A stretch of 64,000 nt of DNA from a virus. The translations under genes were made by a program, and so were the position numbers. Where the stretch lies: IMG/VR virus record IMGVR_UViG_3300003322_000730, positions 1 to 64,000 of that record, one strand, 5' to 3'. The notes beneath the pieces are model-generated. The model was not told the origin of the DNA. It worked only from the letters and a program-made list of their open reading frames with translations, and did no database searches. Positions 865 through 13,393 of this stretch are shown piece by piece (the stretch's first letter is position 1; each line of letters starts with the position of its first letter).

Positions 865-1142
865 AAGTTGAATGGGATTTTTCTAATATTCCCAGAGCAC
901 GTTTCAAAAATAATTTTACTAAGCCCATTGTCTTGCTTACCATTATATCTTCCGCGCCTCCATTCACCATCTTCTAGGTCTTGCCATTCAATAATATCTC
1001 CCACCTTGGGAGTCCACACTTCCGTCGCCGGATCATTCGGGTTTGTTTTCATTGTCTTTTCGTTGTTTAAACTTTCCAAATACTTCTCGACAGACCCAAA
1101 CTCTTGGATCATGTCATCAATGTGCCGGACTATTGATCCCAT
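861..1142 (-). CDS. hypothetical protein, possible SH3/Tudor-like C-terminus
   Basis: PKVGDIIEW...WRRG pattern; packed ORF. Confidence 0.55.
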   Translation of the reverse strand: MGSIVRHIDDMIQEFGSVEKYLESLNNEKTMKTNPNDPATEVWTPKVGDIIEWQDLEDGEWRRGRYNGKQDNGLSKIIFETCSGNIRKIPFNL

Positions 1143-1657
1143 GGAACTACCTGATCATCCCAACGCCACTGGTACTTCCCCGCGGTCTTCTGAAGACCGT
1201 TGGCGCACCTGATGATCAGCGGAGGGGCCACGCCGGTCCTGAGATGCGCCGCGAACACTGTCTTGTGCCTGGCGATCACTCTTCCGTTGCGCCTGTGGCA
1301 CTGTAAAAGCAGGCTCGGCTTCTGGAACGGGTTCTCCCCTTCGATCTCGTCAGAGCGCTCAAATGGCATCTCAAAGATGATCCTGGGCCTCTTCTTGCAA
1401 ACCTCTTGCAGAAACATGCTGCATAAGATGCTGATCTGACCCGGGAACAGCTTCTTTGCGTTTTCAATAACCTCCCTTTCCAAAGTAATTGTTGTGACAA
1501 CCGGATCTTTCCACGCCGGCTGTTTGGTTTGATTGGGGCGGGCAAGCAGGCTGTAGCCTTCCTTTCTGCTGTTCAGCAGGCTTTTGGGGCGGCCTTTGGT
1601 CTTTCCGCTGGGCATTGCCTGCTTTTGTTTAGTCGAGGTATTTGATTGGGTTTTCAT
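1130..1657 (-). CDS. basic hypothetical protein, possibly DNA-binding
   Basis: KGRPK AT-hook-like motif, K/R-rich, follows the HTH gene. Confidence 0.5.
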   Translation of the reverse strand: MKTQSNTSTKQKQAMPSGKTKGRPKSLLNSRKEGYSLLARPNQTKQPAWKDPVVTTITLEREVIENAKKLFPGQISILCSMFLQEVCKKRPRIIFEMPFERSDEIEGENPFQKPSLLLQCHRRNGRVIARHKTVFAAHLRTGVAPPLIIRCANGLQKTAGKYQWRWDDQVVPWDQ

Positions 1658-7442: not shown

Positions 7443-7663
7443 GAAATGATTTCTGCATCATTCGAAAAGTCAACTCCGGTAGATTTCATTTCATCAATGT
7501 CGGATTGTGACAATTCTCTAAAAACAACGTGCTGACCTCGTTTTCCTGAATACTTGTCCCACTGGCAGACCCAAATTTTTCCACTGGAAGATCGTGTAAC
7601 AGACATTGACCCATCAACTTGGGTGTCGCGCAAAACGCTATTTATCTTTTTCTTGTTGTACAT
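7412..7663 (-). CDS. hypothetical protein
   Basis: Overlaps the end of the nuclease gene. Confidence 0.55.
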   Translation of the reverse strand: MYNKKKINSVLRDTQVDGSMSVTRSSSGKIWVCQWDKYSGKRGQHVVFRELSQSDIDEMKSTGVDFSNDAEIISWAVSKGPSK

Positions 7664-8276
7664 AGTTTATAATCTTTTGACCTATAAATTTGTATTTAGT
7701 CAGTACCTCATAAAGATCGAAATTACCTTTCATGGCTTTGTAGGCTGAAATTCTTACGGTCCTCCCAAATCCCTTTAATCGAAGTCTTTGATCTCTTATA
7801 GAGTCGTACTCCTTGGTATTCATGTGAGCAATACCGTCAACCTCAATGATGCAGTTTATCGGTTTTTTCAGGTAGAAGTCTAATACGTATAACTTTATGT
7901 CACTTTTCTTCTTTGACAAACGCACGACCACGGGTTTCTCTCGCTCATAAGGGATATTTAGACGAATCAACTCTCGCTCCACATTTTCAACCGGCGGGCT
8001 ATTGTGATTGGATATATTTTGCTTCGAAAAGATATTCCCAATCTTTTTTAATCCGTTAGTGGCTTTTATCCTATCGGACTTCGATTTGCTATTTTTCAGT
8101 TTAATGCCATTCTCCGAAAGAGAACAGGCATACCTAATAATCACAGTATCCGTCTGATCTGATGATCCAGTTAAAGACCTTATCCTTGACGCAACCGCTT
8201 TCTTGCCTATGTCTTTTCTAAGACCCAGCTCTTGGCAACACAAAAAAAGTTGATAAAGCGTTGGTTTTACTTTCAC
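7638..8276 (-). CDS. DUF559/Vsr-like PD-(D/E)XK endonuclease with basic N-terminal extension
   Basis: YVLDFY...IIEVDGIAH...YDSIRDQRLRLKG...VRI motifs; GTG start. Confidence 0.8.
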   Translation of the reverse strand: MKVKPTLYQLFLCCQELGLRKDIGKKAVASRIRSLTGSSDQTDTVIIRYACSLSENGIKLKNSKSKSDRIKATNGLKKIGNIFSKQNISNHNSPPVENVERELIRLNIPYEREKPVVVRLSKKKSDIKLYVLDFYLKKPINCIIEVDGIAHMNTKEYDSIRDQRLRLKGFGRTVRISAYKAMKGNFDLYEVLTKYKFIGQKIINYVQQEKDK

Positions 8277-8289
8277 GGAAAAATTGGGG

Positions 8290-8894
8290 AAATTAAAAAA
8301 AATGAAAAACTGCTTTTAGTTAATATTAACCAATCTCTTTTCTTTTTCTACCGGATGGTGTCTCTTCCTGTTAGATCGAGTGGCGAGGCTGACGCACAAT
8401 CCGTCCAACACGCGTGAGAAACAAATCTCACCCATGCTGGGGGCTGCGTCATCATCCTTTATGAGTCTCGGACTGAGTGTGAGCGCATCACGTAACACCA
8501 CTCTACGTGAATTTGGGACATCTTACAGAGGATATTGTGGTTCCCCCAACCTTACTACGCAATTCCCTTACCCTTGCGCTGATCCAGAGGTTTCGCTGTT
8601 GATCATTTTCGGAGAGCGGCCAGCCGTGAGTATCATTGCCCGTACAACCATTAAGAGGCTTCCACCTCACTTCCTATCCTTGTTTCAGTAAATCAGTCTG
8701 GATTGTTCGGCCCGCAGCCTATTGAATCGGGTTTGATTCGCCAGGGCACAAAAGGATAGCCCTAACAGAGAGCGGCGGGTGATGAGTCCATAATTAAGAG
8801 CCACAGATAACTCCTAAAACCGCTGCCCTGTTAGGGCTAAATTTCTTTCTGTGTACGTTACAGTCATCAACTAAAACGGAACTCATGTCGAGAA
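8290..8894 (-). ncRNA. putative long structured leader or ncRNA upstream of the DUF559 gene
   Basis: ~600 nt without a convincing ORF, with its own promoter. Perfect inverted repeats: 8757-8768/8828-8839, 8674-8681/8752-8759, 8488-8494/8504-8510, and 8390-8396/8445-8451 enclosing 8414-8419/8426-8431. Confidence 0.6.
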
Positions 8895-8900
8895 CAGAAG

Positions 8901-8933
8901 TAAAATTACCACATCCTTCACATGAAAGTCAAG
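8901..8933 (-). promoter_or_regulatory. Bacteroidota-type sigma-A promoter
   Basis: Minus strand CTTG-N21-TAATTTTA, close to consensus TTTG-N19-21-TAnnTTTG. Confidence 0.55.
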
Positions 8934-8952
8934 TATTCTAACAAGAAAATTT

Positions 8953-9153
8953 TCAATTAAGCCCAACAGCCTTCCAAAAGTTGTCAATTGCGCGTTTCGC
9001 GCACATATGCAAGTGATACGCTTGAAATCCCAAAGTGCCTCGCACGGCCTTCCTGAAGTTCTCTTTGTAGATGTAGGACTTCTGTTTTACGTAGTATTCC
9101 TGATTGATATAGTCATCCAGGTCTTTCTCGCGTTCTTCATCCTGTTTTCCCAT
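8953..9153 (-). CDS. hypothetical protein, paralog of 9137-9325
   Basis: Shared LD.Y...VR.T.GF..YHL motif. Confidence 0.65.
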   Translation of the reverse strand: MGKQDEEREKDLDDYINQEYYVKQKSYIYKENFRKAVRGTLGFQAYHLHMCAKRAIDNFWKAVGLN

Positions 9154-9325
9154 CCTCCCTATCCTTTAAAACCTGTGTATACTTATCCAAGTGATACCTT
9201 TTGAATCCCATCGTTTGCCGGACATTTTCGACGAACTCTTTCAAGACCGGCCGCTTGTCAAATCCGAATACAATTTTCAGATACTCATCCAAATGCTGAT
9301 CTTCCAACTCTTCGCGTGTTTTCAT
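9137..9325 (-). CDS. hypothetical protein, paralog of 8953-9153
   Basis: Shared motif as above. Confidence 0.65.
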   Translation of the reverse strand: MKTREELEDQHLDEYLKIVFGFDKRPVLKEFVENVRQTMGFKRYHLDKYTQVLKDREDGKTG

Positions 9326-13302: not shown

Positions 13303-13393
13303 TGGTCACCAGAGAAAGAGTCGAACTTTCAATATCTATGCGTCCATAGAAACCGGATACTCTCCGGCGGGTCTACCATTCCCCTATCTGGTG
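13303..13393 (-). tRNA. tRNA-Leu-like (type II) RNA with a 5-nt anticodon loop; probably non-decoding
   Basis: Perfect 7-bp acceptor CACCAGA/TCTGGTG plus ACCA; D-arm GGG-GAATGGTAGA-CCC; stem CCGGA-GAGTA-TCCGG; variable arm TCTATG-GACG-CATAGA; T-arm GAAAG-TTCGACT-CTTTC. Confidence 0.85.

Follow-up and report, generated by a model that had tools for sequence, protein, structure and literature searches.

We analyzed the first 64 kb (hereafter the window) of a 77-kb phage record of IMG/VR (IMGVR_UViG_3300003322_000730) and found that the minus strand of positions 8366–8884 very likely represents a real gene for a structured RNA of approximately 520 nucleotides (nt). The RNA is followed by a gene for a DUF559 nuclease, and a preliminary description of the sequence had treated the two as a unit, in which a non-coding RNA of ~600 nt with its own promoter is coupled to the nuclease. 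We consider it probable that the locus as a whole is explained by a stand-alone gene for a large folded RNA and a homing nuclease that occupies the adjoining slot. To judge from the sequences compared, the RNA appears to be a conserved core element of a small phage clade from soil and root metagenomes.

The genes between approximately positions 1 and 17000 of the window lie on the minus strand. An interval of 676 nt (8277–8952) separates the open reading frame (ORF) of 66 amino acids (aa) at 8953–9153 from the DUF559 ORF at 7638–8276, and no minus-strand ORF within it is longer than 61 aa. The GC content reaches a peak of 0.50 in this ORF-poor stretch, compared with 0.37–0.45 in the flanks. 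The lack of a credible ORF over ~600 nt, as previously described, was therefore confirmed; the length assigned to the RNA was not, because the conserved RNA occupies only ~520 nt of the ORF-free gap.

The family comprises two full sequences, those of the window and of a second phage (L010), and one 3′ fragment on a metagenome contig (L004). L010 is an IMG/VR phage of 57.6 kb with a CheckV completeness of 100%, and its full-length homologue is located at 1825–2318 on the minus strand; the record was found by scanning IMG/VR with an 18-mer from a block common to the window and L004. The L004 contig is 1214 nt long, and its positions 1–158 align with the 3′ part of the RNA. The RNA cores of the window and L010 exhibited 81% DNA identity over 299 nt, and a block of 43 nt at 8587–8629 was invariant between them (alignment A5). 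The 166 nt that precede the L004 nuclease aligned at the DNA level with approximately 8360–8515 of the window, in long identical blocks and with two adjacent compensatory pairs in one hairpin. The 3′ parts of the RNA in L004 and L010 were 97% identical over a stretch of 169 nt that ends at the start codon, and 99.4% identical over 158 nt.

The surroundings of the element have diverged to a much greater extent. The window and L010 share an upstream anchor gene encoding a protein of 297/322 aa (34% identity) and a downstream anchor gene encoding a 77-aa protein with the motif GTRKHGAxRRAAHDLKE (53–55% identity). Between these anchors all of the small ORFs differ between the two phages, and the non-coding element alone is retained. 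Over 14–16 kb of the relative (loci L010/L048), the only DNA matches to the window were the RNA core and the gene cluster at 228–1059.

We calculated the consensus fold of the window/L010 alignment with RNAalifold. On the minus strand, 20 of the 108 consensus pairs carried compensatory double changes, and the consensus energy gave a z score of −4.24. As the null model, alignment columns were shuffled within conservation classes 100 times per strand; the shuffled minus-strand alignments gave 8.0±2.8 double changes (maximum 15), and none of the 100 reached the observed number. The corresponding values for the plus strand were a z score of −2.95 and 16 double changes, against 8.1±3.0 in the shuffles (maximum 17), with 3 of 100 reaching the observed number. 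When the single-sequence structure of one homologue was transferred to the other, 15–16 double changes kept the pairing, compared with 3–11 in slid controls. The best-supported helices, with two double changes each, were the base of the long hairpin (9 bp), the 8-bp hairpin at 8488–8510, and a 7-bp stem in the core. The single-sequence fold of the window RNA had z scores of −4.65 on the minus strand and −1.9 on the plus strand (20 shuffles). The covariation check suggested in the preliminary description thus gave a number of compensatory pairs above the column-shuffle null with two full sequences.

The RNA consists of a 5′ hairpin domain, a central core, and a 3′ domain of nested stems, all described here on the minus strand and aligned to L010 and L004. 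The 5′ hairpin (8856–8878; columns 13–35 of alignment A5) is retained in L010, in which one of its pairs has undergone a compensatory change from U-A to C-G. The long hairpin at 8757–8839 is closed at its base by a perfect stem of 12 bp, formed by 8757–8768 and 8828–8839 (inverted repeat I12, 100% complementary), which had already been recognized from the window sequence; it contains two compensatory double changes in 9 bp relative to L010, and its distal part varies in length between the phages. A 5-bp hairpin at 8655–8668 exhibits an A-U to C-G compensatory change below an invariant GGAA tetraloop of the GNRA type. The most constrained part of the core is the identical 43-nt block at 8587–8629. 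The invariant GCCGCUCU (8620–8613) pairs with 8711–8720 in the consensus fold or, alternatively, with the invariant loop AGAGUGGU (8504–8497). These alternative pairings could represent a pseudoknot or a conformational switch, and no covariation decides between them.

Toward the 3′ end, the 8-bp hairpin at 8488–8510 has an invariant 7-nt loop, and an invariant run of 11 nt, AGAGUGGUGUU, includes two closing pairs of this hairpin. Adjacent double changes, G-C to A-U and U-A to C-G, were found in its stem in both L010 and L004. The 3′ domain (8373–8457) is the three-tier nested stem that had been proposed at approximately 8390–8451. It was recovered in the single-sequence and consensus folds, shows four compensatory pairs with changes in the relative, and contains a 20-nt block, CGCGTGTTGGACGGATTGTG, shared by the window, L010, and L004. 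The RNA is separated from the start of the nuclease gene by an AT-rich spacer of ~90 nt (8277–8365), which is not conserved and is absent in L004 and L010; in both of these the nuclease ATG is located 11 nt past the RNA. The invariance of many unpaired nucleotides suggests that the RNA forms tertiary contacts or binds a partner.

A promoter-like element precedes the RNA at 8901–8932 on the minus strand and consists of TTG (8932–8930), a 21-nt spacer, and TAATTTTA (8908–8901). The consensus of Bacteroides and Flavobacterium promoters is TTTG at −33 and TAnnTTTG at −7, and TAATTTTA agrees with the latter at 7 of 8 positions. The counterpart in L010, TTTG-N20-TAGTTTTG at 2360–2329, is found at the same offset, and both elements end 15–16 nt ahead of the first conserved base of the RNA. 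The promoter previously placed at 8901–8933 is absent from the list of a sigma-70 scan; it is better interpreted as an element of the Bacteroidota type, TTG-N21-TAATTTTA, and in this form it is matched in L010. It is plausible that this element is a putative Bacteroidota-type promoter of the RNA.

The RNA matches no family in Rfam 15. We searched the whole window against Rfam 15 at the gathering score, and no family matched the element; the L010 copy also gave no match. When the threshold was relaxed to E values up to 10 on the element (~550 nt), only chance matches to archaeal snoRNA-like families were obtained in the window and nothing was obtained in L010. RNase P RNA was considered as a candidate and rejected. 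The model RF00010 gave no match at E values up to 10 over the whole phage record, and the controls were detected. The colinear motifs AACAGCGA, GGUAAGGG, and GUAAG resemble the specificity domain of RNase P RNA; two Bacteroidota RNase P RNAs share only words of 6–9 nt with the element, and no conserved 3′ P4 strand was seen by reading the alignment. A tRNA search found no tRNA inside the element.

Further members of the family were sought with several approaches. A blastn search of the INPHARED phages gave no further RNA member, and three scans of IMG/VR with exact motifs found only L010. The one among these that used a 16-mer returned 38 stretches, which apart from L010 were chance matches; the three with the longest blastn matches were inspected and lie in coding sequence. 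The five matches of a 20-mer scan of the GTDB genomes were all chance matches in coding sequence, and BLAST of 401 Bacteroidota genomes gave only chance matches of 20–35 nt. Protein-anchored scans with the DUF559 protein, the 346-aa neighbor, the terminase, and an alignment of the 77-aa anchor returned the record of L010 or nothing, and a word-based search with the DUF559 protein matched only the protein itself. One sequencing run contains the window sequence; this run, a root metagenome whose nucleic acid is recorded as probable DNA (“DNA?”), probably corresponds to the source sample. The nearest cultured relatives of the terminase are those of Cellulophaga, Bacteroides, Flavobacterium, and Polaribacter phages (33–37% identity), and a Bacteroidota host, which is probable for the phage clade, fits these relatives.

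The gene downstream of the RNA (7638–8276, minus strand) has a GTG start and encodes a DUF559/Vsr-like endonuclease of the PD-(D/E)XK type with 212 aa (PF04480, E = 3e-7). The additional N-terminal region of ~90 aa noted previously is indeed present and is conserved in some homologues. The GTG start aligns with the ATG of the L004 protein, which is 44% identical over the full length. A search of 1.84 billion representative proteins gave 39 distant relatives, and the N-terminal domain is shared by several of them. Pattern scans derived from these relatives led to L004 and to two further homologue loci, L002/L005 and L003. Residues D133, E145, D147, and H151 were invariant in 12 homologues, with the motif IEVDGxxH. 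The AlphaFold2 model of the DUF559 protein had a predicted local distance difference test (pLDDT) score of 90 and a helical N-terminal domain, for which no NUMOD or helix-turn-helix match was found in Pfam. The top matches in Foldseek were PvuRts1I-type enzymes and the catalytic domain of the homing endonuclease I-Bth0305I (probability 1.0).

In regards to L010, the RNA is followed at the same genomic position by an HNH endonuclease (PF01844), which is also 212 aa in length. This protein showed no BLASTP similarity to the DUF559 protein of the window, including the parts outside the catalytic domains, and no DUF559 gene was found in the whole L010 record. Between L004, which carries a DUF559 gene, and L010, similarity is lost after the start codon and returns only at the downstream anchor gene (91% identity). 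The near-identical 3′ parts of the RNA in these two sequences, followed by unrelated ORFs, indicate that one nuclease gene replaced another in a slot 11 nt past the RNA. L010 also carries an additional hydrophobic ORF of 90 aa (909–1181, minus strand) between the HNH gene and the 77-aa anchor; L004 is without it, and this ORF may have arrived with the HNH cassette.

Interchange at a single slot, together with the fold and the invariant residues, is the signature of free-standing homing endonucleases and not of an RNA-guided enzyme. The DUF559 gene accordingly looks like a free-standing, interchangeable homing endonuclease rather than a partner of the RNA. At the homologue loci L002/L005 (one contig, 37% identity) and L003 (40% identity), the nuclease is located among tightly packed genes with no upstream gap. 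The 3′ part of the RNA is present at L004, and none is found at L002 and L003. It is plausible that the nuclease is co-transcribed with the RNA, because in L004 and L010 the gap ahead of the ORF is too short to contain a separate promoter.

The relationship between the RNA and the nuclease admits three other explanations. In a partnership of the OMEGA or HEARO type, the RNA would serve as a guide or scaffold for the downstream nuclease, and the same RNA would be used by DUF559 and HNH as exchangeable catalytic modules. A same-strand nuclease ORF does follow at a distance of 11–90 nt in 3 of 3 RNA copies, and the DUF559 protein possesses an additional conserved helical N-terminal domain. The functional pairing put forward in the preliminary description was nevertheless not supported by the comparison: near-identical RNA stands beside different nucleases, the L010 homologue being accompanied by an unrelated HNH enzyme in a record that is free of DUF559, and the two nuclease types share no detectable similarity and hence no visible common RNA-binding module. 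In addition, the DUF559 homologue loci L002 and L003 have no RNA, the RNA is far more conserved (81% in DNA) than the nuclease (44% in protein), and neither a variable guide-like end nor transposon ends were seen. The likeness to HEARO/OMEGA loci was not upheld either, since no HEARO or other Rfam match was obtained in either copy and the nuclease has been swapped. Such a partnership is quite unlikely. It is unlikely, if somewhat less so, that the RNA belongs to a selfish cassette, as a leader or ribozyme that controls, stabilizes, or processes the mRNA of the homing endonuclease and moves together with it. Ribozymes ahead of homing-endonuclease ORFs are known in eukaryotic twin-ribozyme introns and provide a precedent, and the nuclease ORFs of L004 and L010 directly follow the RNA, with too little space for a separate promoter. 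However, the RNA stays syntenic while the ORF behind it switches family, the window copy has a non-conserved spacer of 90 nt, a fold of 520 nt with long invariant blocks exceeds the needs of a leader, and Rfam gave no match to lariat-capping or self-cleaving ribozymes. A degenerate or unusual self-splicing intron of group I or II with a homing endonuclease would follow the classic group I pattern, in which a structured RNA is found with endonucleases from several homing families, and I-Bth0305I, the prototype of the EDxHD enzymes, is itself encoded in a phage intron (PMC3239194). No intron model matched at E values up to 10 over ~550 nt in either phage, the flanking sequences of the window and L010 are unrelated to each other and therefore contain no conserved exons, the 66-aa ORF upstream of the RNA is complete, with a paralogue in tandem, and no conserved RNA was found past the nuclease; we regard an intron as extremely unlikely.

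Two further alternatives concern the nature of the conserved sequence itself. A DNA-level element, such as an origin, a packaging or recombination site, or a nuclease recognition region, would account for the palindromes as DNA hairpins or protein sites. The compensatory changes on both strands agree with this proposal, non-coding conservation is also expected of cis-acting DNA, and an origin or primer RNA had been offered as an alternative in the preliminary description. It is very unlikely in view of the absence of iterons and of an AT-rich unwinding region, the GC content being raised instead. Moreover, the gene strand has the stronger structure, its many G-U pairs and the G-C to G-U changes would not pair if read on the opposite strand, and nested helices over hundreds of nt suit RNA better than duplex DNA. 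In regards to a hidden or decayed coding sequence, an antisense ORF is open over the RNA core in both phages (103 aa at 8380–8691 of the window and 79 aa at 1943–2182 of L010, both on the plus strand). Its frame contains no stop over 88 aligned codons in either phage, and the frame of a minus-strand GTG ORF is kept between the window and L004. The ratio of non-synonymous to synonymous change (pN/pS) in the open antisense frame was nevertheless 0.81, and the values across all six frames were 0.70–1.01. Substitutions were distributed over the three codon positions as 42/50/47 in the whole element and 17/18/18 in the core, without periodicity or positional bias. No credible Pfam match was obtained for the small ORFs, the only one being to DUF3895 (E = 0.01, 16.4 bits against a cut-off of 25 bits). 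The antisense ORF had no homologue in a collection of 5.8 billion proteins, in which it is not called as a gene. A coding origin has hardly any probability on these grounds, and the antisense ORF probably arises incidentally from the conservation of the RNA. The element, being conserved and covarying and having no coding signal, is thus better described, as originally claimed, as a structured non-coding RNA than as a decayed gene.

Several observations weigh against a stand-alone RNA gene with a homing nuclease beside it. The covariation counts come from only two full sequences and one 3′ fragment and are consequently not phylogeny-aware, and the excess of compensation is found on both strands. 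The single-sequence fold of the L010 RNA had a z score of −1.4 on either strand, which is no better than the shuffles. Thermodynamic stability alone is uneven, and the case is based on conservation and covariation, not on helix counts. The choice of the minus strand is based on the energy asymmetry, the G-U pairs, the G-C to G-U changes, and the direction of the neighboring genes. The promoter was identified by eye, and the sequence is on record in no RNA run. The presence of a nuclease directly downstream in all three RNA copies leaves room for a functional link. A nuclease-free allele was not found, including in the contigs of the run that contains the window sequence, where neither a variant nor a nuclease-free joint was present; in this situation, homing is a process that we infer.

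With a stand-alone RNA gene and an adjoining homing nuclease, the locus would operate as follows. The RNA would be transcribed in the direction of the surrounding early-type genes from a promoter ending ~16 nt upstream, and would fold into three domains held by the covariation-supported helices. Selfish nuclease genes would settle beside the highly conserved sequence, which would offer a stable cleavage target in nuclease-free relatives, and the nuclease gene would be copied in during repair, as expected from the established biology of homing endonucleases. The slot at the 3′ end of the RNA would have been filled independently by DUF559 genes in the window and L004 and by an HNH gene in L010, and the nuclease would probably ride on the RNA transcript. 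As for the RNA, our best guess is that it may act as a stable trans-acting RNA during infection, in the role of a scaffold, decoy, or ribozyme. Three features point to an RNA that acts in trans and has a complex tertiary fold: its size, the long unpaired tracts that are invariant, and its persistence while the genes around it have changed. It is possible, although doubtful, that the RNA is the first member of a new class of large phage RNAs, either catalytic or self-assembling (a ribozyme or an RNA-only complex), and is so essential to this clade that its gene became the target of two unrelated homing families. A special case of such a class, in which the RNA is a modular cofactor for either a Vsr-like or an HNH nuclease, is highly improbable.

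Some other features of the locus and of the window were observed. Two tandem paralogous small ORFs, at 8953–9153 (66 aa) and 9137–9325 (62 aa) on the minus strand, are located directly upstream of the RNA. A repeat, D1 (30 nt, 80%), recurs here at a spacing of 178 nt. L010 is without these two ORFs and has unrelated small ORFs at that position. In the shared gene cluster near the start of the window, positions 228–414 were 94.7% identical to the related phage over 188 nt, and further matching blocks were found at 490–542, 632–674, and 1030–1059. The block at 228–414 covers a minus-strand ORF of 60 aa (229–411), which is far more conserved than the other shared genes. ARAGORN identified a tRNA-Thr with the anticodon AGT at 13303–13393 of the window.

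The T4 seg and mob genes are free-standing homing endonuclease genes that lie beside conserved genes. The present locus resembles such free-standing phage homing nucleases (T4 seg/mob; PMC10055350) in that a nuclease was replaced among close relatives at one intergenic slot beside the most conserved local sequence, and it differs in that the neighbor is a large RNA gene instead of a protein gene and in that no empty site was found. It has been reported that nuclease genes are located where genetic exchange between phages has its boundaries (PMC10055350). The Vsr-like EDxHD homing endonucleases of phages, whose prototype is I-Bth0305I, are intronic or free-standing (PMC3239194). The DUF559 protein shares with I-Bth0305I the Vsr-like catalytic fold, the acidic/His motif, the N-terminal helical domain, and the phage-borne location, whereas the identity is only ~20% and the window copy lies outside any intron. 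The arrangement is also similar to that of HEARO and the omega-RNA of IscB, where a large structured RNA directly precedes a nuclease ORF, and one relative carries an HNH enzyme. In contrast to these systems, there is no RuvC domain, and the nucleases are single-domain proteins of ~212 aa with DUF559 only or HNH only. The locus further differs from OMEGA systems in that the RNA and the nuclease do not form an obligate pair, the nuclease family is interchangeable, and no model matches. Group I introns likewise combine one RNA scaffold with different endonuclease families, but the RNA described here has no exons and no model match, and the ORF is positioned after the RNA and not in a loop.

Bacterial and phage non-coding RNAs longer than ~400 nt with complex conserved folds are rare, and those known have turned out to be ribozymes, cores of ribonucleoproteins, or, recently, RNA-only assemblies. 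The RNA resembles GOLLD and ROOL, the large ornate RNAs of phages and prophages, in being longer than 500 nt, rich in helices, non-coding, and phage-borne (PMC12286853), and it differs from them in having no match to their Rfam models and in being known from only three copies. A survey of structured RNAs in IMG/VR required at least three IMG/VR regions (PMC10690425). The RNA may have been missed by this survey because only two IMG/VR records were found here.

Taken together, the element is a credible new family of large structured RNA with a narrow distribution and with interchangeable selfish nucleases next to its 3′ end. The locus also calls for caution, because finding a nuclease gene after a large RNA does not, on its own, constitute evidence for an RNA-guided system. 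If our explanation is true, the RNA would represent a new class of large RNA from Bacteroidota-type soil phages, and the locus would be a natural example of two unrelated families of selfish nucleases competing for a slot beside an RNA gene.

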